The notes under the pieces: model-generated
What the model saw: the letters and a program-made list of their open reading frames with translations, nothing else
Databases searched by the model: none
Told to the model about the DNA's origin: nothing
Source of the DNA: Thermodesulfobacteriota bacterium
GTDB lineage: Bacteria > Desulfobacterota > Desulfarculia > JACQYL01
NCBI GenBank assembly: GCA_963675595.2
Contig: CAXXLZ010000002.1
Span: 4,480,001 to 4,544,000, forward strand
Length of the DNA stretch: 64,000 nt
Direction of reading: 5' to 3'
Program-made: the position numbers and the translations under genes
Part shown: positions 29,616 to 43,207 of the stretch, one piece after another
How the letters are laid out: each line of letters opens with the position of its first letter
Position numbering within the stretch: position 1 is the stretch's first letter

Positions 29616-29821
29616 GGCAACCGGACTCTTTTCCTCATCCAACCGTTGTTGCCGCTTGGGAAAGAAAGCAGGTTATTGTACGATGAAGTCCTGTATGGAG
29701 GATAGTCATTGCCGGAATCCCCATGACGTCCGGCCTAGCCCGACACGTTGATGCAACGGAGCCCCCGGGAAGCGATGTGAACTCCCCTCACGACAAGGGC
29801 GTGCAAACCGCCGCGAACCGG

Positions 29822-31867
29822 ATGAAGGAGTCCGAGAAGCCGCCGCCGAGGCCTCGGAACCGGCGGTGCCTGTTGATCTCCCTGGTCGCGGCGTCCTGGT
29901 CCCTGTTTCAACTGGCTCTGCCCGAGGTGCTGCTGCTTCAGGCGGTCACCATCCGCGCAGTGCACCTGGCATTCGCCATGGTGCTGGTCTATTTGAGCTT
30001 TCCCTATTTCACCAAGAGGAGACGAAGGGAGGATCGGGATTCTCCCGCGGGAGCCCGATCGGGGGGATGGAGGAATCTCGCGACGGCCCTGGCGGCCGGG
30101 GCGTCCTCCTTGTACCTGGCGATCTTTTATGAGGCATTGAGCGTCCGGCAGGGCTCGCCGAACCTCGCGGACATCATCGTGGGCGTTGTCCTCATTCTGC
30201 TGCTGCTGGAAGCGGCCCGCCGGTCCCTGGGACCGGCCCTTCCCGTGGTGGCCGGGCTGTTTATGCTGTACGCGTTTTTCGGCCCCTATATGCCCGACGT
30301 CATCGCGTTCAAAGGCGTGAGCTTTTCCAGGTTCATGAGCCAGCAGACCATCAGTACGGAAGGCATCTACGGAATCCCTCTGGATGTGTCGGCCAACCTG
30401 GTCTTTCTGTTCGTGTTGTTGGGCTCCATGCTGGAAAAGGCCGGCGGAGGGGAGTATTTCGTGGACCTGGCTTTCAGCCTGCTGGGAACCTTCAAAGGCG
30501 GACCGGCCAAGGCCGCGGTGCTGGCTTCCGGCGCCACGGGGCTCATTTCGGGAAGTTCCATCGCCAATGTGGTGACCACGGGCACCTTTACCATTCCCCT
30601 GATGAAATCCGTGGGCTATCCTCCCGAAAAAGCGGCGGCCGTGGAAGTGGCCGCCAGCACCAACGGTCAGCTCATGCCCCCCATCATGGGCGCCGCGGCC
30701 TTCATCATCGCGGAATACTGCAACATGCCCTACATGGAAGTGGTCAAGGCGGCGTTCGTGCCCGCCATGCTGAGCTATGCCGCGCTGTTCTACATCACCC
30801 ACCTGGAAGCGGGAAAGCTGGGCCTCAAGGGCCTGTCCAAAGAACAAACGCCCCGGTTCCTTTCCACCTTTTTGGGCGGGATTCATTTTCTGATTCCTAT
30901 TGCGGCTCTGCTCTACTTCCTGATGGTGGAGCGCCGAAGTCCCTCATTCGCCGCTTTCTGGTCCATTATGGCGCTTCTGGCCCTTATCGGGATCAAGGAA
31001 CCGTGGGCGGCCGTACGACGCGGTGAATCCTTGAGCCGGGGCCTCGGCAGGGCCGGCGTGATCATTTGGGAATCCCTGGTCGCCGGCGGACGCAACATGA
31101 TGGGCATCGGCGTGGCGGTGGCCGGGGCCGGCATCATCGTGGGCGTGGTGACCATGGGGTTGGGCGGGCTCATCACCGAGGTGGTGGACGTGATCAGCGG
31201 CGGGAACCTGTACCTTCTGCTGATCCTCACCGCGGTCGCCTGTCTGTTGTTGGGCATGGGACTGCCCACCACGGCCAACTACATCGTAATGGCCACCCTC
31301 ACCGCCGGAGTCATTGTTGAACTGGCGCCGGCCGCCGGGTTGGAGGTGCACCTGATTCAGGCGCACCTTTTTGTGTTCTTTTTCGGTATCCTGGCGGACG
31401 ACACCCCGCCGGTGGGGCTGGCCGCCTACGCGGCGAGCGCCATTGCGCGCAGCAACCCCATCGCCACCGGGGTTCAGGGATTTCTGTACGATGTCCGCAC
31501 CGCTGTTTTGCCCTTCATGTTCATCTTCAACGAGCGACTGCTGCTCATCGGCGTGGATTCCTTCGGAACCGCGGCCTGGATCTTCATGAGCGGGATCGTG
31601 GCCATGTTCGCCTTCGCCTGCGCGACGCAAGGATTCTTCATCGCCCGCAACAAACCTTGGGAAACCGTGATTTTCCTGCTGATTACCTTTATGATCCTGA
31701 GACCGTTCAGCGCGACCGGCTGGTTGGGCGCGACCGATCCTTATTCGGCGGGTTTCATGGGAATCGGCGCGGCGGATTGGGTGAAAGCGGGCGGCATCGG
31801 CTTGTACGGTCTGATGTACCTATCACAGTTGCCGCGCGCGCGCAGGGCAAGGGTCGGATCGGCTTAG
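29822..31867 (+). CDS. TRAP transporter fused 4TM/12TM permease (TAXI-associated)
   Basis: GGPAKAAV, SGSSIANVVTTGTFTIPLMK, ASTNGQLMPPIMGAAAF, GMGLPTTANY, ADDTPPVGLAA. Start is 29723 or 29822. Confidence 0.95.
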   Translation: MKESEKPPPRPRNRRCLLISLVAASWSLFQLALPEVLLLQAVTIRAVHLAFAMVLVYLSFPYFTKRRRREDRDSPAGARSGGWRNLATALAAGASSLYLAIFYEALSVRQGSPNLADIIVGVVLILLLLEAARRSLGPALPVVAGLFMLYAFFGPYMPDVIAFKGVSFSRFMSQQTISTEGIYGIPLDVSANLVFLFVLLGSMLEKAGGGEYFVDLAFSLLGTFKGGPAKAAVLASGATGLISGSSIANVVTTGTFTIPLMKSVGYPPEKAAAVEVAASTNGQLMPPIMGAAAFIIAEYCNMPYMEVVKAAFVPAMLSYAALFYITHLEAGKLGLKGLSKEQTPRFLSTFLGGIHFLIPIAALLYFLMVERRSPSFAAFWSIMALLALIGIKEPWAAVRRGESLSRGLGRAGVIIWESLVAGGRNMMGIGVAVAGAGIIVGVVTMGLGGLITEVVDVISGGNLYLLLILTAVACLLLGMGLPTTANYIVMATLTAGVIVELAPAAGLEVHLIQAHLFVFFFGILADDTPPVGLAAYAASAIARSNPIATGVQGFLYDVRTAVLPFMFIFNERLLLIGVDSFGTAAWIFMSGIVAMFAFACATQGFFIARNKPWETVIFLLITFMILRPFSATGWLGATDPYSAGFMGIGAADWVKAGGIGLYGLMYLSQLPRARRARVGSA

Positions 31868-31891
31868 CGCCTCTTGGATTGAGACAGCCGT

Positions 31892-31972
31892 TCCGGGGGG
31901 CGCTTTTGGAAAAGCGCCCCCCGGACTCCCCTGAAAACTTTCGAGCGTGGCCGCACCGCCTACGGCGGAGCG
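31892..31972 (-). repeat. Repeat family A copy
   Basis: TCCGGGGGGCGCTTTTGGAAAAGCGCCCCCCGGA...AAAACTTT...CGCACCGCCTACGGCGGAGCG. Confidence 0.85.
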
Positions 31973-32023
31973 CCTGCCGGGAGTGGGGAGAAGATTCGTG
32001 GCGCCTATTTGCGTGGTGTGCCG

Positions 32024-32169
32024 CCGGGGGACCAATGGCCCCCCGGACCCCCTTTGCGCTTCTGCGAATCGCGTACGCGATTCGCATAACGAGCAGCATG
32101 TGACCGTCCAACGTATTAAAATGCCAACGGTTTTTGGGAGGGTTCCCTCGGATGCCCCTCTGAATGCTC
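32024..32169. repeat. Repeat family C copy 2, containing a 24-bp perfect palindrome
   Basis: TGCGAATCGCGTACGCGATTCGCA at 32063-32086; colinear with 25799-25942. Confidence 0.85.
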
Positions 32170-32305
32170 GCAGTCGTAGTACCCCTGTGAATATGTACGA
32201 TTGGTGAGGCGTCTGCTTGCCGATGTCGCCTCAAAGCGAAATGCACATACGAATCCCGGTCATTCGCATCGAGAATCGGAATACGGACAACCAAGGAGGA
32301 ACGTC

Positions 32306-33298
32306 ATGAAGCGACCGTCGGTATGGCTGTGCGCAGCGCTTTTGCTGATGAGCTTTGTCTTTTCGCCGAACCCGATGCCGGTTCAAGCCGAAACCCGCTT
32401 TGCGGCCATCGGCACCGGAGCCGTGACCGGGGTCTACTATCCCACCGGACTCGCCATCGCCAAAATCGTCAACGAGAAGCGCAGGACCTATGGCCTCCGC
32501 TGTTCGGTGGAGTCCACGGGCGGCAGCGTATTCAATGTGAACGCAGTGATGTCCGGAGACCTGGAATTCGGCATCGTGCAGTCCGACCGACAGTATCAGG
32601 CGGTCCACGGCACGGCGGAATGGACGGACATGGGGCCCCAAAAGGGATTGCGCGCGGTCTTTGCCATTCATTCCGAGTCCCACGTGCTTTGCGCGTCGGA
32701 GAACAGCGGCATCGGGACGGTCCCCGACCTCAAGGGAAAAGCCGTGGCCGTGGGGAATCCCGGCTCCGGCCAGCGGGGGAACTTCATCGATATGTTGAGC
32801 GAGTACGGCATGACCTACGACGACCTGGGACGCGCGGAAGGCTTGAAGGCGTCCGAGTCCTCCAAGCTGCTGCAGGACGGCCGCATCGACGCCTTTGTCT
32901 ATACCGTGGGCCATCCCAGCGCATTTTTCAAGGAAGCCACTGCAGGACGCATCAAGGTGCGCTTCATCCCCTTCGACCGGGACAAGATCGCGGCGCTGAT
33001 CAAGCGGCACCCCTACTATGTGCCGGCGGAAATCCCCATGGAGTATTATCCCGGCGCTCTCAACAAGGAACGGTTCGTGCCCACTTTTGCGGTGAAGGCT
33101 ACTCTGGTGACCCGGGACGACGTGCCCGAGGACATGGTGTATGCCGTGACCAAGGAAGTGTTCGAACACTTCGAAGACTTCAAGAAGCTGCATCCGGCCT
33201 ACGAACACCTGACCAAAGAAGGTATGCTTCAAGGCATGACCGCCCCCATCCATCCCGGAGCGCTGAAATATTACAGGGAAGCGGGACTGATGGAATAG
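32306..33298 (+). CDS. TAXI family TRAP solute-binding protein
   Basis: Signal peptide, IGTGAVTGVYYPTG, ESTGGSVFN, VGNPGSG, PIHPGALKYY. RBS AAGGAGG. Confidence 0.95.
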   Translation: MKRPSVWLCAALLLMSFVFSPNPMPVQAETRFAAIGTGAVTGVYYPTGLAIAKIVNEKRRTYGLRCSVESTGGSVFNVNAVMSGDLEFGIVQSDRQYQAVHGTAEWTDMGPQKGLRAVFAIHSESHVLCASENSGIGTVPDLKGKAVAVGNPGSGQRGNFIDMLSEYGMTYDDLGRAEGLKASESSKLLQDGRIDAFVYTVGHPSAFFKEATAGRIKVRFIPFDRDKIAALIKRHPYYVPAEIPMEYYPGALNKERFVPTFAVKATLVTRDDVPEDMVYAVTKEVFEHFEDFKKLHPAYEHLTKEGMLQGMTAPIHPGALKYYREAGLME

Positions 33299-33499: not shown

Positions 33500-33658
33500 T
33501 TGACAAAAACCGCCGTCTGCGGCGGATATGTTGTAGGGGCAGGCCATAGTGCCTGCCCGAGGAGCCGGCCGAAGGCCGACCTTCCATCAGACTCTTATGT
33601 ACGCCTCCACTCCTCGGGATACGCACGCCTTGCCTCTCATCGTTTTTCGACAGTCTGC
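33500..33658. repeat. Degenerate family B copy interrupted by a GTAG REP (33533-33558)
   Basis: AAAAACCGCCGTCTGCGGCG ... GTAGGGGCAGGCCATAGTGCCTGCCC ... ATGTACGCCTCCACTCCTCGGGATACGCACGCCTTGCCTCTCATCGTTTTTCGACAGTCTGC. Confidence 0.7.
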
Positions 33659-33666
33659 CGTTTTGC

Positions 33667-34740
33667 TCATGCGCCCGCCCCCGGCCGCTTCCTCGCCACC
33701 CACAACAGATGCTGGCCCAGGTGACGGATCAGGGGCAACTTCTGTAGGATACTTTCCACAGGCGCTACTGCGGCGCGGATCATCTCGGGCCGGTTTTGGG
33801 CCAGAAATTCCACCACGAGGAAGGGAAAGAATTCGATTTCGAAGCTGCCGCGCCACACCGTGTCGAATCCCGCTTCGTCCAGCAGGATTTCCAGTTGCCG
33901 GTGAGAGAAATGATAATGCATGCCGTAGGCGGGTTCGGGGTTCCGACGGTTGTATTCGAATTGGGCGTGCAGGTTGTGGTAGGGCGGCAAAAACAGGTCG
34001 TCGGCCAGGCTCAGGCATTTCTCCAGAAAAACGAACGGGTTGCAGGTGTAGTTGAGATCGTGACGGCTGGGCGTGCTGAGGACCAGCAGGCCCCCGTCCC
34101 GTAGCAGGTCGGAGCAGGCTTTGAGGGCGGCGGACGGGTCCACCACGTGTTCCAGGACTTCGGTCATGAGCATGCCGTCGAAGGAGGCGGGGCCAAAGGG
34201 CGGCCGCGTCGCGTCACCGCAAACGAAGGAAAGGCCCGCCGGGGTGTCCTCGCCGGCGTATCGTTTCGTCGCCTCCATGAGTTTGAGATCGTCCAGTTCG
34301 AGCCCCACCACGGTGCCGGGATGCTCCCGGGCCATGTAAATCGTGTTCTTTCCGAATCCACAGCCCAGGTCCAGCCGACGCGGGCAATCGCCGATCCATT
34401 GGGACACCAGGGCCTGAACGCGTTCGTACCGGTAATGGTAATAATGGCGATCCAGGGGGGACCTCAACAGTGCCCGTTTTTCCGGGGTGTTGAAGTCGTC
34501 CCGCAGGGTGTAGGTTCGTTCGAGGTTTCGGATGTGTTCCGTGGTCATGCTTTCGCGGATGGGTTCGGAAGCGGCCGCGTCGAGCCGGGCCTCCCGTCGA
34601 TGATACAGATACAGGAGTCCGAAAATGAGGACGGTCGCCCGGAACACGGTTCCGGTATGGAGCAGGACTAGGTCGGCGACCAGGGCCGCGAGGAGGACAA
34701 ATTCGATTCCGTGTTTTCTGAGCCGCTTGGATACCTTCAT
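33667..34740 (-). CDS. Class I SAM-dependent methyltransferase with an N-terminal membrane anchor
   Basis: Two hydrophobic N-terminal segments, LDLGCGFG, GDA..PF...SFD, TEVLEHV, GGLLVLSTP. Confidence 0.9.
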   Translation of the reverse strand: MKVSKRLRKHGIEFVLLAALVADLVLLHTGTVFRATVLIFGLLYLYHRREARLDAAASEPIRESMTTEHIRNLERTYTLRDDFNTPEKRALLRSPLDRHYYHYRYERVQALVSQWIGDCPRRLDLGCGFGKNTIYMAREHPGTVVGLELDDLKLMEATKRYAGEDTPAGLSFVCGDATRPPFGPASFDGMLMTEVLEHVVDPSAALKACSDLLRDGGLLVLSTPSRHDLNYTCNPFVFLEKCLSLADDLFLPPYHNLHAQFEYNRRNPEPAYGMHYHFSHRQLEILLDEAGFDTVWRGSFEIEFFPFLVVEFLAQNRPEMIRAAVAPVESILQKLPLIRHLGQHLLWVARKRPGAGA

Positions 34741-34744
34741 GGGC

Positions 34745-35554
34745 CTATTCCGACATTTTCAAGAGGACGCCGGTCTGTTTCGCCCGGTTCAGGGCCCGAA
34801 AGAGGGCGGCCAGGGAAAGTCCCAGGTAGAGGAGGGCCAGCAGATATCCGTACAACAAGGGAGATCGGCTGCCGGCCTCAAATCCGTAGAAGGAGCGGAA
34901 ATACTCGAGGAAATGGGTCAGGGGAATCCATGCGGAAAGGACCTGTAGAGGTCGCGGCAATACATCCACGGGATAGTAGATTCCACTGAGAAGTATGAGC
35001 AGACTCACGATGGACGTGGCTCCCACGTGGGATCGGCCCCCGAAGCGGAAGGAGAGGGCGCAGACCGTCACGCCCACGGAAACGGCCGTGAGCACCAGGC
35101 CGCCGTAAAAAAGGACCGGGCAAAGGAAATCCCCTCGGGGCAACCGAAAACCGAAGGCGTACCGGCTGAAAATCGACAGGGCCGCGAAGATCAGCGCCGA
35201 ATGAATGATCCCCATGAGCGACGAGCCGGTGATGAGGTGCGGGATGCCTACCGGAGCGGCCATCTCCTGTTTCAGGCTCTTGTTCCACACGCTGTACAGA
35301 ATCACATAGGAAATATCGAGCTGGGCCACCTGCACCACGCTGAGGGCGATGACTCCGATGAGAACGAAGGCGATCATGTCCTCGGACAGGGACAGGAAGC
35401 GGGTGAGCAGGCCCACGGACAGCAGCGCCGTGGCGGGCCAGAAAAGAATTTCGAAGATGTGGAAAAGCCGCTTCTTGGTGATCAGCCGAATCTTGAAGAA
35501 GAAGGCGTTAATCCGGATCAGATGAGTTTGCAAGCGCAAGAAACACGTCTCCAA
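34745..35554 (-). CDS. ABC-2 type exporter permease
   Basis: About 6 TMs, LSGIYYPVDVLPRPLQVLSAWIPLTH ABC-2 signature. Probable TTG start overlapping the ATPase gene. Confidence 0.88.
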   Translation of the reverse strand: METCFLRLQTHLIRINAFFFKIRLITKKRLFHIFEILFWPATALLSVGLLTRFLSLSEDMIAFVLIGVIALSVVQVAQLDISYVILYSVWNKSLKQEMAAPVGIPHLITGSSLMGIIHSALIFAALSIFSRYAFGFRLPRGDFLCPVLFYGGLVLTAVSVGVTVCALSFRFGGRSHVGATSIVSLLILLSGIYYPVDVLPRPLQVLSAWIPLTHFLEYFRSFYGFEAGSRSPLLYGYLLALLYLGLSLAALFRALNRAKQTGVLLKMSE

Positions 35555-36458
35555 GAGTGGGTTGGGTGATTTCCACATGGTCCACGGACCCGCCGCTTTT
35601 GAGCACGGCGTCGAGAATGGCTCCCAAAAGCCCTTGCCGGTCGCTGAGGCCACATTCGAGAAGCCCTTCTTCCATGCGGATCCGGGAAACTCCGGGCAGG
35701 GCTTCCACGGGACCGGACGCCGCGACCAGACCTCGCCCACGGATGGTCAGCCGTTCCTGAAAGCCGATACTCTTCTTGAGGTCTTCCGCTTTTCCTCGAC
35801 GTACGAACCGGCCTTCCTTCATAAAGGCGATTTGTTCGCTTAATTGTTCCGCTTCGTCCATCTGGTGCGTGGTGAGGATGATGGTGACGCCTCGGGCACG
35901 GCTCCAATCGCGGATTCGAGATCGAATCAGCAGACAGGCTTTGGGGTCCAGACCCACGGTAGGCTCGTCCAAGAAGAGCAGTTCCGGATCGTTGATAAGG
36001 GACTTGGCCAGGGCGAGACGCTGCTTGATGCCTGTGGAAAGCTTGTTGAAAGGCGTGCGGGCATAGGGCTCCAATTCGAAAAAGGCAATGAGCTCCCGCG
36101 TCCTTTCCTGTCTTCTCGCACGAGGGATTCCATACAGCATGCCGAAATAGGTCAGGTTCTCCTCCACGGTGAAATTGTCCGGAAAATTGGCGTGTCCGCT
36201 CGCGAGATTCACTCTGGAGCGTATTTTTCCGGTTTGCGTGAGGAGGTCCAGGCCGCACACCGACCCGCCCCCGGCGTCCGGGATGAGCAGTCCGCACAAA
36301 AGGGAGATGAGCGTGGTCTTGCCGGCTCCATTGGGTCCCAGGATGCAGAACGTGGAACCCGCCGGCACCGTCAGGTTGATGCCTTTCAGGGCTCGGACGG
36401 CCGGATTGCCGGGGTAGATTTTTTCAATGTCCCGGATGTCGACTGCCGGAGGCGGCAT
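35508..36458 (-). CDS. ABC exporter ATP-binding protein (DrrA-like)
   Basis: GPNGAGKTT, LSTGIKQR, LFLDEPTVGLD, TTHQMDEAE. Confidence 0.93.
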   Translation of the reverse strand: MPPPAVDIRDIEKIYPGNPAVRALKGINLTVPAGSTFCILGPNGAGKTTLISLLCGLLIPDAGGGSVCGLDLLTQTGKIRSRVNLASGHANFPDNFTVEENLTYFGMLYGIPRARRQERTRELIAFFELEPYARTPFNKLSTGIKQRLALAKSLINDPELLFLDEPTVGLDPKACLLIRSRIRDWSRARGVTIILTTHQMDEAEQLSEQIAFMKEGRFVRRGKAEDLKKSIGFQERLTIRGRGLVAASGPVEALPGVSRIRMEEGLLECGLSDRQGLLGAILDAVLKSGGSVDHVEITQPTLGDVFLALANSSDPD

Positions 36459-36544
36459 GGTTGAAGGCTTCCGTGCGGGTGAACAGGCAACGAGCCGCAC
36501 GAATCCGTGATCGGCGTCGTTGCCCTCAAATGGCCGGGGTGCCG

Positions 36545-37993
36545 TTACCGGATGGTGTATTGGTCCAAATCGACTTCTTTGAATTCCACCCGCTCGAAAC
36601 GTTCGGTTCTCGGGTAGGGCGCGGTGGCGTCCATGCCGATTTTCGTGACCGTTCCCCCTTTGCCGTCCGGGTTGATCCGGACCATGGGGTTGAGGATGTG
36701 ACCCCACTGGTCTTTCATCACCATGAGGTCCGTGTCGGGATTGAAGCGGGTGGTGAGGGCCCAGTTCACGTCGATGGGATCATACAGGTTCACGTCCGTG
36801 TCCACGGCGACGACTCGCTGCAGGGGTTTGAACGCTTCGAACGCGGCCATGATCGCCTTGCGGCCCACGTCCTCGCCGTTCTTGTCCACCTGCACCACGG
36901 CGCCGTAGAAACCGCACCCACCCGGCGTCAGGTAGACGGCTTGTAGCTGAGGAATCTGCTTTTTGACGGTGCCGAAGATTTTGGCTTCAGCGGTAAAGCC
37001 CACGGCGTTCCACACTTCCTGTCCGGACAACAGACTGTGGAAAATCGGGTTCTTGCGGTGGGTGATTGCCTTCACCTTCATGACCCAACGTTGGGCCCGT
37101 TCGGCATAGTATCCGGTCACTTCCGCGAAGGGACCTTCCTCCTCGCGTACGTTGGGAAGGATTTCGGCTTCGATGACGAATTGAGCATCCGCGTAGGCCG
37201 GCACGTCCACGGTTTGAGCCTTGATGAAATTGATGGGCCGTCCCACCAACTGATTGGCGATGCCGTACTTGCCGTCCCCTTGTCTCGGGATGGCGGAAAC
37301 GATCCAGGGCGCCAATCCCACCCCGTTGTTGATGGTCACCTCCAAGGGTTCGTTGCGTTTTTCCATGATTTCGAGATACGCGCCCAGGTGTCGACCGGGG
37401 TCGATGAGGAAGGTAAGGCGGTCTTTGCCGGTGATCATGATCCGATGAATGGAAATGTTGGGAACGCCCGTCTCCGGATTCTTCACCACCACGACGGAGC
37501 TGTCGAAATAACGGCCGCCGTCCTTGAGCGCATGGACGGGAACGGGAAGTTTGTACAGGTCCACTTCCGGCTCAACGACCTCGTTGGCGGGACCTTTCTC
37601 CAGGATGGGCGAGGGAAAGGCTTCTTTATTCCGGTGCCACGGACCGATGGCCGACGCGATGACAAAAGGAACTTGTTCTTTGGACACTCCGAAAAGATCG
37701 CCCACAATGTTGCGGTTCCAGAGCAGGCCCATGAACACCGGATATTCGCTGCCTTTGACGTGTTCAAAGAGAATGCATTTCTTGCCTTCATACTTTTTGG
37801 CGATGCCGGCGAGTTCGTATTCGGGGTTCACTTCGGAAACGACCCGCACCAGGTTGCCGGTTTCTTCGAGATGGGAGATGCACGCGGACAGGTCCACCAG
37901 TCGCTGCGCCGCTTCCTCGGAAACGGCCGGAGCGGCGACGGCCGCGGCCGTCAAAGTCAGGCAAAGCAATAGGGCAAGGGTAAGTCTCATCAT
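36545..37993 (-). CDS. UbiD family prFMN-dependent (de)carboxylase with an N-terminal signal peptide
   Basis: MMRLTLALLLCLTLTAAAVAAP, then DLSACISHLE..GNLVRV..EVNP, DGGRY, NISIHR, EEGPFAEVTGYY, VAVDTDVN..D..DVNWALTTR, KIGMDAT. RBS AAGGA. Confidence 0.93.
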   Translation of the reverse strand: MMRLTLALLLCLTLTAAAVAAPAVSEEAAQRLVDLSACISHLEETGNLVRVVSEVNPEYELAGIAKKYEGKKCILFEHVKGSEYPVFMGLLWNRNIVGDLFGVSKEQVPFVIASAIGPWHRNKEAFPSPILEKGPANEVVEPEVDLYKLPVPVHALKDGGRYFDSSVVVVKNPETGVPNISIHRIMITGKDRLTFLIDPGRHLGAYLEIMEKRNEPLEVTINNGVGLAPWIVSAIPRQGDGKYGIANQLVGRPINFIKAQTVDVPAYADAQFVIEAEILPNVREEEGPFAEVTGYYAERAQRWVMKVKAITHRKNPIFHSLLSGQEVWNAVGFTAEAKIFGTVKKQIPQLQAVYLTPGGCGFYGAVVQVDKNGEDVGRKAIMAAFEAFKPLQRVVAVDTDVNLYDPIDVNWALTTRFNPDTDLMVMKDQWGHILNPMVRINPDGKGGTVTKIGMDATAPYPRTERFERVEFKEVDLDQYTIR

Positions 37994-38201
37994 GATCGGT
38001 TTCCTTTCCACGGTTTTCGTTGGGATGTTGCTTCGCCGGTCCAACGCCGGGCAATTCATTTCACGGGGAAAGAAGCTTCGGGCGCTCCTTCGGAAGGCGC
38101 TCGGAGGTTCCAGGATCTTGCGGCCCCTGCATGAACGGAGCGGATCCATGGTCGGCGATGCGGTCCTTATCGGGGAACCGGACAACGCCCTCCCGAAACC
38201 C

Positions 38202-38777
38202 CTATCGGTTTTCTCCCCACCGTTGAAACAATCGGTGCGGTATGTGGAAACAGTCCAATACCTTACCGATGGTCTGCGCGATGATGTCCTCGATGGTTTG
38301 GGGCCCGTGATAGAAGGCGGGTAGAGGCGGCAGGATGGTCGCGCCGTTGCGGGCGGCTTTCAGCATGAGTTCCAGATGGCCCTGATGCAGAGGCGTTTCC
38401 CGCACCACCAGGACCAGGGGACGACGTTCCTTCAGGGTGACGTCCGCCGCCCGGACGATGAGGTTCTCGTTGTACGAATGCGCAACGGCCGAAAGGGTCT
38501 TGATCGTGCAGGGGATGACCGCCATGCCCATGGTGAGAAACGAGCCGCTGGATACGGCCGCGGCAAGGTCCTGATTCCGGTGAACGACGCCGGCGCAGGA
38601 TTCCACCTCTTCGATGGACACCTTGGTTTCCAGGAGGAAGTTCTTTCGGGCCGCTTCGGTCATGATGAGATGCGTTTCGTAGTCGAGCCGCTTCAGGGCT
38701 TTGAGCAGTTCGAAACCGTAGATGACCCCGCTGGCGCCGGATATGCCCACTACGATCCGTCTGATCGCATCATTCAT
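38202..38777 (-). CDS. ubiX: Flavin prenyltransferase
   Basis: IVVGISGASGVIYG, SSGSF, PCTIKTL, RAADVTLKERRPLVLVVRETP, PAFYHGP. Confidence 0.96.
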   Translation of the reverse strand: MNDAIRRIVVGISGASGVIYGFELLKALKRLDYETHLIMTEAARKNFLLETKVSIEEVESCAGVVHRNQDLAAAVSSGSFLTMGMAVIPCTIKTLSAVAHSYNENLIVRAADVTLKERRPLVLVVRETPLHQGHLELMLKAARNGATILPPLPAFYHGPQTIEDIIAQTIGKVLDCFHIPHRLFQRWGENR

Positions 38778-39058: not shown

Positions 39059-42000
39059 CTATGGGGACTTTCCATCCGGAGGCAGGGAAGCGTCGGGCTC
39101 GCTACCTTTCAAGGCCTGACGTACTTTGTCCGCCAATATCTCGATGGTGAATGGTTTCTGAAGGAAATGGACACCTTCCTCCAAAATACCGCGATCGGCG
39201 ATGACATTGTTGGTGTAGCCGGACATGAACAAGCATTTCATCTCGGCTTTCAATGCCGTGAGTGCGCGGGCCAATTGGCGCCCGTTCATTTCCGGCATCA
39301 CCACGTCCGTGATCAGCAGATGGATGGGGCCTTCGTGGGATGCGGCCAGCTCCACGGCCTTCTTGGGTGTCCGTGAAGTGAACACGGTATATCCCAATCT
39401 CTCCAACATGGCTTTCGTCAGTGACAGAATCATTTCTTCGTCTTCCACGATGAGCACGGTTTCAAACCCTCCCTGCAGAACCTGCTCCTTGCTCTCCGGT
39501 ATCGCATCCACAGGTTGGTCTTCCACTGCCGGGAGATAAATCTTGAAAGTCGTGCCGATTCCGGGTTCGCTGTAGACGTTGATGAACCCGTCGTTTTGTC
39601 TCACAATGCCGTAAACCGTGGCCAGCCCCAGGCCTGTTCCCCGGCCGATGTCTTTGGTGGTAAAGAAGGGTTCGAACACCCGGGCCAGTGTCTCCTCGTC
39701 CATTCCGCAACCGTCATCGCTGAATCCCAACATAACGTAACGGCCCGGCACGAATTCCGCATGATCGGCGCCATAAGTCTCGTCCAGCAGCACATTCGAG
39801 GACTCGATGGTGACCTTGCCTACGCCGCCGATGGCGTCTCTCGCGTTGACCGCAAGATTGGCCAGGAGCTGATCCATTTGGGAGGGATCGATACTCACAT
39901 TCCAGAGATCGGCGGCCGGCTTCCATTCCAGTTCGACGTCTTCGCCGATGAGGCGGCGGAGCATCTCGAACATTCCCATGACGGTGCTGTTGACATCCAG
40001 TCTGATCGGCCTGACGGTTTGTTTGCGTGCGAAGGCCAGCAATTGTCGGGTCAACCCGGCCGAGCGTTCGGCGGCTCTTCGGATTTCCGTCAGGTGACTC
40101 TTGAGGTGGGGCTCGGAATCAGCTTCCAGGAGCCCGATCTGGGCATGACCCAGGATGACGCCCAGCATGTTGTTGAAATCATGCGCGACCCCGCCCGCCA
40201 GACGACCTACGGACTCGAGCTTTTGGGCTTGGCGCAACTGTGTCTCCAAATGCTTCTGCGTCGCCTCTCTGCGCCGTTGCTCGGTGACGTCCAAATGGAG
40301 ACCGATGCACTTAACCGGATTTCCCTCGTCATCGAATTCGAATCTGGATTGCGATTGCCAGATTCGCTCTTCTCCGTCGGGCAGAACGATCCGGAATTCC
40401 ACAGGCCAATTTCGTTGCTGTTCGATCATTTGTCGAATTTCTTCCTGCATCCTTGGAAAGTCGTCCGGATGCACGAGTTCCCGCATGTTCTCGAACAGTC
40501 GCGCGGAAATTTCTCCGGGTTTTCTCCCGGCCAGGGCGAACATGTTCCGGGAGAACTCCAAGGTATCCGATTTGACATCCCAGCGGTACGAGCCCATGCC
40601 GGCGATTTCCTGGGCGTCGTTTAAAATGGCTTCGCTGTCCCGGAGGTCCTCTTCGGCTCGTTTGCGGTCGGTGATGTCCAGCAAATTGCTGAGGATGTAT
40701 CTTTCGCTGTCGATCTCGAATAACTCAAAATATCCGAGGGCATATCCTTCTTGGCCCGACGAGGTGACGAATTTCATCTCCCGACCCCTCAGGCTTCCTT
40801 TGGCAACGACGGTTTCGATGACGTGCCTTCTCAACTCAGGATCGGCCCAGAGACCGAAATCCGTGGCGGGACGACCCAGGAGCTGCTCCCGTGGATAACC
40901 GACCGTGTCCGCAAAGGCCTGATTCAGATCGATCAACGTTCCGTCCTTGAGTCGGGTGAAGCTCGAGGGGATGGGGCTCAGGTGAAACAGGTTTCTGAAG
41001 AGGTCCTTGGCCTTGGCCGTTTCGGCCTCGGCACGTTTCCGTTCCGTGATGTTCCGAACGAACGCCATGGTCCCTTTTTGTCCTTCAAAATCAAGGGACA
41101 CCGCCGAGACTTCCACGTCCACCTCGGCGCCGTCCAGCGTCAGATATTTCTCCTCCAATAAAGGAACGGACCGTCGGCCTCGGTTCAGTTCTTTGATTCG
41201 GCGTTGTATGACGTCGCGGGATTCGGGATGCAAGCGTTCCATAACGGGCTTGCCGATCAAATCGGTCTGAGACGAGGCTCCAAAGAGCTTCAGCGCAGCG
41301 GGGTTTGCATAAGCGAATCGGTAATTCCTCGCTATGTAGATGGCGTCGGGGGCATTTTCGACCACCAGGCGAAAGCGTTCTTCGCTTTCCTTCAGCTGTG
41401 CCGTCCGCTCCTCCAGCAAATCTTCGACGCGGAGAAGGGCGCGTTCCCTGCGTGCTCCTTCGCACAAGCGAATCAGGTAGTCGGTCTCGAAAGGTTTCCT
41501 CAGGTACGCGGCCGCGCCGTTCTTCATCCATTCCAGGGCCAGCTCGGGACGGGGATCGTTGGTCATCATGAGGACCACGCAATCGGGCCGAATTTTCTTG
41601 AACTTGACCAGGAGAACATCTCCCAGGACGTCTGGAAGGTGATAATCCAGGATGACGACATCGGGAGGAGCGATATTGAATCTGAGCTCGGCTTCCTCAC
41701 CGGATAGAGCCGTGTCGGCCGTGTAGCCGTGGTCTTCCATCGCTCTTTTCAGAAATCCGGCGAGCGTCTTGCTGTCCTCCACAATAAGAGCGCGAGGCAT
41801 CCGTATATGAGGTTGCGCGGTGAGCAGAGACCGAACTTTGGAGATGAGGGAGTCGGGGTCCACGGGCAGACCCAGAAAGCCGTCGGCTCCGACCTCCTCC
41901 GTGATGCGGGCGGCCTCTTCCCCCGTGTAGGTGGCCGAGACGATCAGTATGGGGACAAGATTGAACCTGCTGAATTCCGCTGAGCGAAGCAGGCGGCAGA

Positions 42001-42217
42001 AACGCCAGCCGTCGATTTGAGGCATGTAGAGGTCGGTAATAATAAGGTCGGGTAAGTCCAGCTTCCCGAGCTCTTGGAGCGCTTCTACGGCATTGGAGAA
42101 CGTGGTTGGATGAAAACCCGCTTTGCGGAGCGTGCTTTCCAGCAGGCGCAACTGGAAAGGATTGTCATTGATCAGGACGACTGTCGCCGTGGGCTGAGGC
42201 CCGGATACCGTCTCCAT
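39059..42217 (-). CDS. Cytoplasmic hybrid sensor kinase (REC-REC-PAS-PAS-PAS-HisKA-HATPase-REC)
   Basis: ITDLYMP and ILDYHLP receivers, three PAS/PAC regions (ITERK, ITDRK, VTEQR), AHDFNN H-box, NARDA, FEPFFTTK, GTGLGL, LITDVVMP. Confidence 0.95.
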   Translation of the reverse strand: METVSGPQPTATVVLINDNPFQLRLLESTLRKAGFHPTTFSNAVEALQELGKLDLPDLIITDLYMPQIDGWRFCRLLRSAEFSRFNLVPILIVSATYTGEEAARITEEVGADGFLGLPVDPDSLISKVRSLLTAQPHIRMPRALIVEDSKTLAGFLKRAMEDHGYTADTALSGEEAELRFNIAPPDVVILDYHLPDVLGDVLLVKFKKIRPDCVVLMMTNDPRPELALEWMKNGAAAYLRKPFETDYLIRLCEGARRERALLRVEDLLEERTAQLKESEERFRLVVENAPDAIYIARNYRFAYANPAALKLFGASSQTDLIGKPVMERLHPESRDVIQRRIKELNRGRRSVPLLEEKYLTLDGAEVDVEVSAVSLDFEGQKGTMAFVRNITERKRAEAETAKAKDLFRNLFHLSPIPSSFTRLKDGTLIDLNQAFADTVGYPREQLLGRPATDFGLWADPELRRHVIETVVAKGSLRGREMKFVTSSGQEGYALGYFELFEIDSERYILSNLLDITDRKRAEEDLRDSEAILNDAQEIAGMGSYRWDVKSDTLEFSRNMFALAGRKPGEISARLFENMRELVHPDDFPRMQEEIRQMIEQQRNWPVEFRIVLPDGEERIWQSQSRFEFDDEGNPVKCIGLHLDVTEQRRREATQKHLETQLRQAQKLESVGRLAGGVAHDFNNMLGVILGHAQIGLLEADSEPHLKSHLTEIRRAAERSAGLTRQLLAFARKQTVRPIRLDVNSTVMGMFEMLRRLIGEDVELEWKPAADLWNVSIDPSQMDQLLANLAVNARDAIGGVGKVTIESSNVLLDETYGADHAEFVPGRYVMLGFSDDGCGMDEETLARVFEPFFTTKDIGRGTGLGLATVYGIVRQNDGFINVYSEPGIGTTFKIYLPAVEDQPVDAIPESKEQVLQGGFETVLIVEDEEMILSLTKAMLERLGYTVFTSRTPKKAVELAASHEGPIHLLITDVVMPEMNGRQLARALTALKAEMKCLFMSGYTNNVIADRGILEEGVHFLQKPFTIEILADKVRQALKGSEPDASLPPDGKSP

Positions 42218-43207
42218 GCTTTCCCCTGGATTCAACGCCAATTCTACGGAAGAGAGATTCCCTGTGGCCGGGGGGCCGACTCACGGCCCAGCAAGTGGGT
42301 CCACGTGCCGAATCAAATGGGCATGGCGGGATGACCCCTTATGGTATGGGCTCTTCTCCGAGCAAAGACCGTTGGTCCGGGAAAGGACGGGGCGGAGGGA
42401 GTGAGCAGGGGAGCGTTTTGAAGCGGGCGACCGCATGGGTGCGGGCATGGAGCCGGCTCTGGGGTAGTCGTGACTGCGTGCCGCAAAGGTTCGCACGGGG
42501 CATTGCTGAAATTCCATTTCATCGGAATTAAGAATTACAGAAACGGGTTCGTTTGGCAAGACGGAAACCCGTTTGTTTCAATCGGCTCATGGGGGCGGTG
42601 ATACCGTGCGATATCGGGAATCGAGCGCTCTGCCGGTTTCGTGGCGTGGAAGCGCGATCTCCTTTCCTTCGGCTGTTGAAAGCAAAACGTACCGCAAAAG
42701 GAAGGCCGGCGATTTGCGTTGCCTCGGGTGCGGCGAATAAGTAGAATGCTTCTATTCTTCCTACAGAATTGAAGAGGCTCCTTGCGAACCCCACGTTCTT
42801 GCGCGATGCCCGTGAACCTTCAGAAAGGGGTCGGCCGACGGCCGGTAATACGGGAGTGCTTCTCTTCACCCGACTTGTCGAGGCTTGATGGCCGGCGTTG
42901 TGCGTTGGGTAGACCTGAATGGAACTTCCGAGGAGGACGTTTGAAGTCGTCGCTCGCCGAAACGTCTTCAGGTTCAAACTCCGTGGCTTGCGAGAGAAGC
43001 CGCGCGCTCGCGATTGGGGAAGGACGTTCCATGAAAGGCGCCGTCGAAGCCTCCGGGATGCCTGTCCGGGCCGTGGGGCCTCCGGGGAGGGTGAGAAAAC
43101 CAACAAGCTCGTTTCGCGGGAGCATTCCGTTCCGATACCGGTTTCCGACAGGACCGGACTTTTTCGCCGGGAACGGGAGATTTCGGATCAAAGACGGATG
43201 AGGAAAT

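Follow-up and report, generated by a model that had tools for sequence, protein, structure and literature searches.

Predicted export of a UbiD-family decarboxylase linked to an ABC-2 pump and a membrane-associated methyltransferase in a Thermodesulfobacteriota bacterium

Introduction

To our knowledge, the characterised UbiD enzymes are all cytoplasmic and depend on the prenylated FMN (prFMN) supplied by cytoplasmic UbiX, and no export route for prFMN is known. Reduced prFMN is sensitive to oxygen, and some UbiDs need a chaperone for loading. Tat signals can carry a folded protein already loaded with cofactor, which Sec and lipoprotein signals cannot. Sec carries unfolded protein, so that an apo-enzyme leaving the cytoplasm by this pathway would have to acquire prFMN, Mn and a monovalent cation on the other side of the membrane.

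The window analysed here, that is, the whole stretch of 64,000 nucleotides, contains a UbiD gene whose best solved relative is AnInD (7p9q; E 2.7e-110, 372.7 bits over residues 33–480), the indole-3-carboxylate decarboxylase of Arthrobacter nicotianae. The available part of the AnInD report gives residue roles for R155, E266 and D169, the last being tied to indole NH binding; it describes expression in E. coli and reconstitution with prFMN, and this part contains no suggestion of export (PMC8988006). The second-best solved relative is the 2,5-furandicarboxylate decarboxylase HmfF (6h6v, 6h6x; about 1e-83), which has the same fold and catalytic motifs. The genes downstream of the window UbiD resemble those of DrrAB exporters paired with natural-product methyltransferases, with which they share the DrrA1-3_C ATPase, the ABC-2 permease and a similar methyltransferase fold; unlike such tailoring systems, the window methyltransferase has two predicted membrane helices.

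Organization of the Locus

Five genes were confirmed, all on the minus strand: ubiX, UbiD, a DrrA-like ABC ATPase, an ABC-2 permease and a SAM methyltransferase. Their order, common strand and spacing are as the original prediction had described them, and the re-read coordinates agree. The first gene, ubiX (38202..38777), encodes the flavin prenyltransferase making prFMNH2 (PF02441, 145 bits; NF004685, 252 bits against a cut-off of 188). It is separated from the UbiD gene (36545-37990, 481 aa) by a 211-nt spacer (37991..38201), which holds the UbiD ribosome-binding site AAGGA. The spacer has no Rfam match at E ≤ 1, does not fold more stably than shuffled sequences (z = +1.27), and no terminator-like site was found in it. 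The ATPase gene (35508..36458) begins 86 nt after UbiD and overlaps the permease gene (34745..35578) whichever permease start is used: the TTG at 35539, aligned with the starts in relatives, is the likely one, and the alternative is an ATG at 35578. The permease alignment over 8 loci shows a mean column identity of 81%. Only 4 nt lie between the permease and the methyltransferase gene (33667..34740), and some 140 nt beyond the stop codon of the methyltransferase there is, on the same strand, a GC hairpin followed by a T-run (33510..33525). This terminator-like site is a consensus match only, and the 9 such sites in the region do not differ much from the mean of 6.6 in shuffled sequences.

The Decarboxylase and Its Predicted Chemistry

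The mature UbiD-family decarboxylase domain (36545..37930, minus strand) matches PF20695, PF01977 and PF20696, all above their gathering scores, and TIGR00148 with 266.8 bits against a cut-off of 244.85. The N-x4-R motif (PNISIHR) and the E-x4-E motif (EGPFAE) align residue for residue with those of AnInD and HmfF; that is to say, the catalytic Arg and the E-x4-E are intact, as had been predicted. The E(D)-R-E catalytic network and the Asn that binds metal and phosphate are thus conserved. In addition, the Asp at R+14 (LIDPGRHLG) is conserved as in AnInD, unlike in HmfF, which lacks it in the alignment and also has no signal peptide. AnInD likewise has no N-terminal extension, and the alignment begins at its residue 5. 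The gene is thus predicted to encode a (hetero)aromatic-acid decarboxylase of the prFMN type in the InD/HmfF subgroup (the InD subfamily has no curated model), an assignment considered moderately probable jointly with the whole explanation favoured below. Many homologues are called HmfF by JGI, which is an automatic name and not a tested function.

The N-Terminal Signal and Its Conservation

The UbiD gene starts with ATG ATG, 8 nt downstream of AAGGA, and its N-terminus reads MMRLTLALLLCLTLTAAAVA/AP. According to sequence rules, residues 1–20 (37931..37990, minus strand) form a signal peptide composed of an MMR n-region and the h/c-region LTLALLLCLTLTAAAVA, in which a hydrophobic stretch of about 17 residues is followed by the predicted cut site AVA/AP. 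Signal peptides were scored with our own rule-based script rather than SignalP, and the cut site was placed by the -3/-1 rule. In the AlphaFold model of UbiD, residues 1–20 lie outside the globular fold with mean pLDDT values of 53 and 44, and the confident fold begins at about residue 21–25. The twin-arginine motif (S/T-R-R-x-F-L-K) is absent from the n-region of the window UbiD, which has a single Arg.

A survey of signals across UbiD homologues, which the original prediction had called for, found a hydrophobic signal-type N-terminus by the same rules in 68 of 139 aligned related rows, representing 58 distinct versions, which is far beyond chance. Among these 58, the n-region is net positive in 54, the downstream flank is neutral or negative in 46, RR occurs in 4 and the full Tat motif in none; the predicted Sec-type signal without twin arginine was therefore borne out and is conserved in the clade. 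The mean pairwise identity is about 20% in the N-terminal part vs 77% in the mature part. At the genome level, 8 of 13 loci (54–79% identical to the query) have a hydrophobic N-terminus in an open frame, which is absent in the other 5. One relative (P0008/G596) carries a clear L-A-G-C lipobox. Taken together, the predicted export signal is genuine and conserved in character across a clade, from which we infer cleavage and a periplasmic location.

The start of translation deserves separate consideration. No in-frame ATG lies between the signal and the UbiD core, and to this extent the earlier claim that there is no alternative start stands; what it overlooked is that the codon of V33 is GTG. 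Initiation there would yield a canonical UbiD N-terminus, just where the alignment with AnInD begins, and the hydrophobic segment would then be an annotation artefact, or else an in-plane membrane helix, with the enzyme remaining in the cytoplasm where its cofactor is made. The mature domain, which shows no clade-specific residue relative to the signal-less sister clade, also suits such a cytoplasmic enzyme. However, GAGGA stands 16 nt before the GTG vs 8 nt for the AAGGA before the ATG, and four related loci (L012, L013, L014 and L016) have no start codon at the V33 position; therefore, there is no conserved alternative start, and no conserved downstream start codon was found across the relatives. 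Moreover, all signal-type loci have an uninterrupted upstream frame that encodes a hydrophobic segment, the charge pattern described above predicts an N-in, C-out orientation, and a lipobox, as in P0008/G596, would make no sense in a protein that is not exported. A cytoplasmic enzyme with a misassigned N-terminus is thus very improbable.

Another possibility is that the hydrophobic N-terminus is an uncleaved signal anchor, which would keep the enzyme tethered on the periplasmic side of the inner membrane rather than releasing it into the periplasm. The uncharged stretches are long (median 20, maximum 30 residues in the 58 distinct N-termini), the partner proteins are membrane proteins, and the switch of P0008 to a lipid anchor suggests that proximity to the membrane is tolerated or useful. 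Set against this, a small-x-small site occurs at the end of the hydrophobic stretch in 53 of the 58 N-termini, and the window h-region of about 17 residues followed by AVA/AP is typical of cleaved signals, which makes permanent anchoring fairly unlikely.

In the tree, the signal-bearing sequences are split between a group of 68 rows and a smaller one of 4 rows, which are separated by a signal-less clade of 45 rows. FastTree support on the branches separating the signal groups is 80–92. The signal-bearing rows do not form a single well-supported clade, and the tree requires at least 6 changes of signal state, 2 of which are forced by well-supported branches. Four rows inside the large signal group (P0047, P0052, P0055 and P0095) have short N-termini, which may be real losses or miscalled starts. 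When the mature domain was compared with the signal-less sister clade, no clade-specific residues were found, and three conserved cysteines are common to both; thus, there is no sign of adaptation to another compartment.

The ABC Exporter and the Methyltransferase

The ATPase contains PF00005 and PF13732 (DrrA1-3_C) and reaches 241.7 bits with TIGR01188 (drrA), below the cut-off of 312.45; the permease matches PF01061 with 50.9 bits and drrB with 23.3 bits, below the cut-off of 223.05. With both curated cut-offs missed, a DrrAB daunorubicin-type exporter was rejected in favour of a generic ABC-2 exporter whose ATPase has a DrrA-like C-terminal domain. The third protein is a class I SAM methyltransferase (PF08241 and related families) of a compact family, in which 90 proteins are all found at E ≤ 1e-71. 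Its AlphaFold model (mean pLDDT 94.7) shows two N-terminal hydrophobic helices at residues 5–27 and 31–63, and the positive-inside rule would place the catalytic domain on the cytoplasmic side. The nearest folds, SpnF, AtmM/RebM, MitM and TleD, are those of small-molecule natural-product methyltransferases. A quinone methyltransferase was also considered and rejected (UbiG 48.6 vs a cut-off of 102.95; MenG_MenH_UbiE 32.1 vs a cut-off of 158.35), and no biosynthetic core genes are found beside the window methyltransferase. The original prediction had left cofactor, substrate and product alike as candidates for methylation. The natural-product-like fold fits a role on the substrate or product better and weakens the case for the cofactor.

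Linkage of the Triad to the Exported Enzyme

The triad of ATPase, permease and methyltransferase directly follows UbiD in five related loci (L004, L005, L009, L010 and L038), where the ATPase orthologues are 53–59% identical. When 244 genomes of two classes were searched, the methyltransferase was present in 9 of 9 genomes with a signal-bearing enzyme, although related genomes in such counts are not independent samples. Among them, the class of G449 has the methyltransferase in 4 of 122 genomes and the UbiD orthologue in the same 4; in the class of G448, each of the 5 genomes that carry a signal-bearing UbiD also encodes the methyltransferase, about 2 kb from UbiD on one contig, and the methyltransferase is absent from G654, the only genome of that class with a signal-less orthologue. 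In the sample of the window's phylum, 1 of 401 genomes has the methyltransferase, namely the window's own. With the length of the longest contig as a proxy for linkage, 14 methyltransferase clusters match a signal-type UbiD cluster and none matches a signal-less one. In two of the nine genomes (G499 and G510) the module is split by insertion sequences at the junction, and these split arrangements contribute little independent evidence that the link is functional. The triad has been inherited with the enzyme in one sub-clade and was found essentially nowhere else.

The second signal-bearing group gives a different picture. Three Syntrophales-like genomes that encode a signal-bearing UbiD were searched for the methyltransferase, and none gave a match at E ≤ 1e-10; their best permease matches, only 22–25% identical, include no orthologue, and all three genomes have ubiX. 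The expected co-occurrence of ABC and methyltransferase genes with this UbiD clade thus held in one signal-bearing group and failed in the three genomes searched from the other. Since signal-bearing enzymes occur there without the methyltransferase or a permease orthologue, the triad is not a general prFMN supplier for exported UbiD.

Supply of the Cofactor

A whole-genome TIGR00421 search gave one match in the 6.8 Mb genome, the ubiX adjacent to UbiD. The genome encodes two further signal-less UbiDs, one of which is a menaquinone decarboxylase, and the sole ubiX must also serve these two cytoplasmic enzymes. Therefore, the position of ubiX upstream of UbiD was read correctly at the outset, but the gene is not a dedicated partner. 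The real MenG of this genome adjoins MqnL elsewhere.

LpdD is a prFMNH2-binding chaperone (PDB 8pzh; PMC10865409). An LpdD-like homologue (PF21758; E 2.5e-6 to LpdD) lies upstream of ubiX beside a signal-bearing UbiD in L005, L009 and L012, and next to ubiX in G452; in L005 and L009, it and ubiX are divergent beside the four-gene UbiD-ABC block. None was found in the window's own genome. The LpdD-like homologues have no signal peptide, so they would act on the cytoplasmic side.

These arrangements bear on the idea of the original prediction that the cluster is a cofactor-delivery pathway, in which prFMNH2, or a methylated version of it, would leave through the ABC-2 pump and load the Sec-exported apo-UbiD. 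A UbiD that is exported requires prFMN on the far side of the membrane, pump and enzyme are inherited together, and ubiX is adjacent in the window, as it is, together with the LpdD-like gene, beside the UbiD-ABC block of the two relatives just mentioned. The Bfe system of Shewanella, in which Sec-exported flavoproteins receive flavin from a dedicated exporter, also counts in its favour. However, the three Syntrophales-like genomes have ubiX without the methyltransferase or a permease orthologue, the sole ubiX of the window's genome is shared with cytoplasmic UbiDs, the methyltransferase fold resembles natural-product methyltransferases, and we know of no part played by any methyltransferase in prFMN supply. 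Delivery of prFMN by this pump is consequently judged unlikely. The complete extracytoplasmic prFMN system, comprising UbiX, an LpdD-like chaperone in relatives, ABC-2 export, loading of apo-UbiD in an anoxic periplasm, and a methyltransferase tailoring the cargo or the substrate, is likewise unlikely.

Proposed Mechanism

The explanation favoured here, with moderate confidence, is an exported UbiD of the InD/HmfF type, accompanied by a linked pump–methyltransferase module. UbiD would carry a cleavable Sec signal peptide, or a lipoprotein signal in some relatives, and the decarboxylase would therefore act in the periplasm or on the periplasmic side of the inner membrane. UbiX would make prFMNH2 in the cytoplasm, where in some relatives the LpdD-like chaperone may hold it, and prFMN would then have to cross the membrane. 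The methyltransferase and the pump would handle the small aromatic substrate or product of the enzyme at the membrane: a precursor could be methylated and exported and then decarboxylated by the periplasmic enzyme, or a membrane-permeant product could be methylated and expelled.

Significance

The clade includes a cultured member, Desulfoferrobacter suflitae DRH4 (as titled in the database record). With this member, a tightly linked module and a close solved relative in AnInD, the question is directly testable. If the complete extracytoplasmic prFMN system were true, it would provide the first export route for a prenylated flavin and the first example of UbiD assembly outside the cytoplasm. 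A clade of considerable size whose members bear Sec or lipoprotein signals would mean either that prFMN crosses the membrane for insertion outside, or that these enzymes mature in an undescribed way. Either answer would extend what is known of flavin trafficking and of the sites of reversible (de)carboxylation in anaerobes.

Layout of the Gene Cluster

All five genes named in the original prediction are present on the minus strand with matching family profiles, and together they span 33667–38777. First in order is ubiX (38202–38777; PF02441, with NF004685 at 252 bits against a cut-off of 188), followed by the gene of a 481-aa UbiD (36545–37990; PF20695, PF01977 and PF20696, with TIGR00148 at 266.8 bits against 244.85), an ABC ATPase (35508–36458; PF00005 with a DrrA1-3_C domain), an ABC-2 permease (34745 to about 35539–35578; PF01061) and a class I SAM methyltransferase of 357 aa (33667–34740). 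The last three are referred to below as the triad. Spacers of 211 nt and 86 nt separate ubiX from UbiD and UbiD from the ATPase gene, the ATPase and permease genes overlap, and 4 nt lie between permease and methyltransferase; a terminator-like hairpin (33525–33510) lies 3′ of the methyltransferase gene, the last of the cluster. In the ubiX–UbiD spacer, an Rfam scan returned no riboswitch or other RNA family and folding gave no unusual structure. A promoter scan gave only weak matches within coding sequence.

A fused TRAP permease (DctM + DUF3394) and a TAXI-type solute receptor are encoded at 29723–33298 on the plus strand, convergent with the cluster, and a 1060-aa hybrid histidine kinase with two receiver domains is encoded upstream of it (39059–42241, minus strand). 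Neither the TAXI-TRAP genes nor the kinase are conserved beside the cluster in relatives, except for a generic kinase match in locus L004.

Start and Signal Peptide of UbiD

The UbiD gene starts with ATG ATG, preceded at 8 nt by AAGGA, and encodes MMRLTLALLLCLTLTAAAVA/AP, where the slash marks the predicted cut just before AP. The claim that no in-frame ATG lies between signal and core was borne out by reading the sequence. Residue V33 is encoded by GTG, and a start there would yield a canonical UbiD N-terminus; this start was rejected because the nearby GAGGA lies 16 nt upstream and because the codon is not a start codon in loci L012, L013, L014 and L016, where the frame upstream of the equivalent codon is open and hydrophobic. 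The Pfam UbiD_N profile starts at residue 38, and the alignment with AnInD, an indole-3-carboxylate decarboxylase, at residue 33. Residues 1–20 average a pLDDT of 53 and 44 in the AlphaFold model, which becomes confidently folded from about residue 21–25 onwards.

A word-indexed search gave 839 UbiD relatives, and the best 120 of these have two kinds of N-terminus: the first consists of MK/MR, a hydrophobic run and a small-x-small site, and the second is a short, hydrophilic, Lys-rich extension. The genome scan gave 13 UbiD loci, eight of which have a hydrophobic N-terminus in the open frame, namely L004, L005 (Desulfoferrobacter suflitae), L009, L010 (Desulfomonilaceae), L012, L013, L014 and L016, at 54–79% identity to the UbiD of the window; the other five, which lack it, are four Rhodocyclaceae loci and L015. 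The alignment then built has 139 rows: the window's UbiD, the frames of 14 loci, the 120 listed proteins and 4 more distant representatives. Two loci were excluded, namely L011, which a contig end truncates, and L015, which matches in two pieces. A row was counted as signal-type when the mean Kyte-Doolittle value reached 2.0 or more in any 11-residue window of the 45 residues that precede the conserved RLVDL. By this rule, 68 rows are signal-type and 71 are not.

Among the 58 distinct signal-type N-termini, the n-region is net positive in 54, the median uncharged stretch is 20 residues, a small-x-small site is found near the end of this stretch in 53, and the flank after it is neutral or negative in 46. 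RR is present in only 4 of the 58. A Tat signal can carry a cofactor-loaded enzyme, while a Sec signal cannot, which makes a Sec-exported UbiD the harder case to account for. The lipobox pattern has six matches, five of which fall within the h-region, and it is convincing only in the listed homologue P0008 (L-A-G-C; likewise in genome G596). In this one member of the clade (P0008; locus L056, G596:C47), a lipoprotein signal (LLAGC) replaces the Sec/SPase I signal, and the methyltransferase is on the same contig. On average, pairs of sequences are 20% identical over the N-terminal part and 77% over the mature part, and this contrast is the signature of a signal peptide conserved for its physical character. 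In summary, three lines of evidence indicate that the UbiD signal is real.

Spread and Evolution of the Signal

For the best 150 of 4465 cluster representatives at 50% identity, the N-terminus script, whose output consists of the flagged and the longest ones only, flagged just two, P0132 and P0219. P0132 is a fragment of the same signal-bearing UbiD clade; in most full-length representatives among these 150, the listed match starts a few residues from the N-terminus. Judged from these N-termini, the signal is confined to this UbiD clade within the best 150 of 4465 hits. P0219, a fragment of 230 aa whose match is restricted to the middle of UbiD, starts with the signal-like MRRLRLPSTTGWIIPVLMAGAVPASAAP, and P0123, a representative 50% identical, has a 30-residue Lys/Arg-rich N-terminal extension.

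In the FastTree tree, 64 of the 68 rows in the main group are signal-type and the remaining 4 have short N-termini, possibly through miscalled starts; a separate signal-bearing group of four consists of L012, L013, L014 and L016. Between the two lies a signal-less clade of 45 rows, with branch support of 80–92. The tree requires at least six changes of signal state, two of them forced by well-supported branches; either one gain and one loss or two gains would fit it. The signal-less clade retains the PMPE-VA-RL segment that comes after the signal in signal-bearing rows. Members of this sister clade (P0056–P0120) share about 72% identity with the query, and where the others have the signal they carry some 20 hydrophilic, Lys-rich residues; this extension may be the signal minus its hydrophobic core or a precursor of the signal. 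No residue or cysteine is fixed differently in the signal-bearing UbiDs, and the two kinds share their three conserved cysteines.

Identity of the Enzyme and Other UbiDs in the Genome

The best solved relative of the window's UbiD is AnInD (7p9q, E 2.7e-110), followed by HmfF, the 2,5-furandicarboxylate decarboxylase (about 1e-83), and then by AroY, VdcC and E. coli UbiD. The N-x4-R and E-x4-E motifs are conserved. In the alignment with structural relatives, the Asp at R+14 is conserved as well and is shared with AnInD, whereas HmfF is without it; in one report, D169 of AnInD is tied to binding of the indole NH (PMC8988006). Since this Asp is conserved, the best guess for the substrate would be a heteroaromatic acid carrying an NH or OH donor group.

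The 6.8 Mb genome contains three UbiD genes. The second encodes a menaquinone decarboxylase (TIGR03701, 640.9 bits versus 495.9) and lies in locus L003 (G000:C2:3511828-3516180) between a MenG/UbiE methyltransferase and an MqnP-like prenyltransferase, and the third is a generic UbiD; neither of the two carries a signal peptide. There is no ubiX near the menaquinone decarboxylase, which relies on the window's ubiX about 1 Mb away. The latter is the single copy in the genome and must serve all three UbiDs, so its position is not evidence for a dedicated partnership with the exported UbiD, and this reading was rejected.

Linkage of the Triad to UbiD

That the gene neighbourhood is conserved held only in part: the triad directly follows UbiD in L004, L005, L009, L010 and L038, but it is absent from L012, L013, L014 and L016. 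It follows UbiD at none of the five signal-less loci. In the genomes of L012, L014 and L016, the triad's methyltransferase was not found at E ≤ 1e-10, the best permease matches are 22–25% identical, and ubiX is present in all three. According to the original prediction, the ABC pump possibly delivers prenylated FMN (prFMN), the cofactor made by UbiX, to the exported UbiD. Such delivery is possible, but it is weakened as an explanation because the second signal-bearing group is without the triad.

In the class of genome G449, the methyltransferase occurs in 4 of 122 genomes, and the UbiD orthologue in the same four. In two of this class, G499 and G510, the triad lies 30 kb from UbiD or on another contig. 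Insertion-sequence genes stand on both sides of the broken UbiD/ABC junction, namely twin 581-aa DUF4277 transposase genes in G499 (L034:9615-11360 and L035:10690-12435) and IS110 genes in G510 (L037:9289-10584 and L036:4726-5635). This points to a recent IS-mediated rearrangement of what would have been one ancestral four-gene block; with transposases exactly at the junction, the unlinked genes were rejected as independent evidence of a functional link. In the class of G448, the methyltransferase is found in 7 of 122 genomes and the UbiD orthologue in 6, with both in five, about 2 kb apart. Also in this class, G654 has a signal-less UbiD orthologue with the methyltransferase absent, 543 nt separate the methyltransferase of G617 from the start of its contig, and in G646 the methyltransferase match is only partial.

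No UbiD orthologue was found in 60 relatives of the window's genome (best match 37% identical), and among the 401 genomes sampled from the phylum, the methyltransferase was found in the window's genome alone. The four-gene block is patchy in distribution and therefore probably mobile. Fourteen methyltransferase clusters have longest contigs equal in size to those of signal-type UbiD clusters and none to those of signal-less ones, equal size being a proxy for shared contigs and not proof of them.

Structure and Family of the Methyltransferase

The methyltransferase family is compact, with 90 proteins all at E ≤ 1e-71. The AlphaFold model (mean pLDDT 94.7) has long N-terminal helices at 5–27 and 31–63, followed by a Rossmann-type core. 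Since positive residues precede the first helix and follow the second, the catalytic domain would be in the cytoplasm, where SAM is available. The nearest Foldseek neighbours (SpnF, AtmM/RebM, MitM, TleD and TM1389) are methyltransferases acting on small natural products and one uncharacterised quinone-methyltransferase-related protein, and the scores of the UbiG, UbiE and MenG models are far under the cut-offs. In alignment A1 of the methyltransferase, three His residues of the C-terminal half are invariant (H255, H275 and H344, within PPYHNLHA, YGIHYHF and GQH) and H258 is nearly so; together these residues may be a metal or substrate site. A metagenome scan gave five weak relatives, 27–31% identical across the SAM-binding core, which provided no context. 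The predicted complex of the methyltransferase with two permease copies (score 0.00, mark 0.32) counts neither way.

Cofactor Handling and Proposed Role

An LpdD-like gene (PF21758) is found on the minus strand at L005:6052-6447, L009:5939-6364, L012:6337-6669 and L051:2111-2473. It lies directly upstream of ubiX and is divergent from the signal-bearing UbiD in L005, L009 and L012, and in genome G452 it also adjoins ubiX. Its product matches LpdD (PDB 8pzh) at E 2.5e-6, LpdD being described in PMC10865409 as a prFMNH2-binding chaperone. The LpdD-like protein lacks a signal peptide, and a search of the window's genome did not find its gene. The LpdD-like gene shows that cofactor handling matters for this UbiD clade and does not indicate a membrane-crossing route. 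The second-group UbiDs have contexts of their own: at L014:1679-9779, the gene lies among those of the tricarboxylate transporter (TctA, TctB and TctC) and of a fumarate-reductase-like flavoprotein with its Fe-S subunit, and in L016 it comes after the gene of an NADPH-FMN reductase and faces that of a UbiA prenyltransferase.

Full-text searches, judged mostly from listings, found no paper on an exported UbiD; in the available parts of PMC8269228 and PMC13416013, the signal peptides concern hydrolases or methods, not UbiD. In the favoured mechanism, UbiD is probably exported via Sec and uses a small (hetero)aromatic acid as its extracytoplasmic substrate, and in the triad-bearing sub-clade, the pump and the methyltransferase would handle the substrate or product of UbiD at the membrane.
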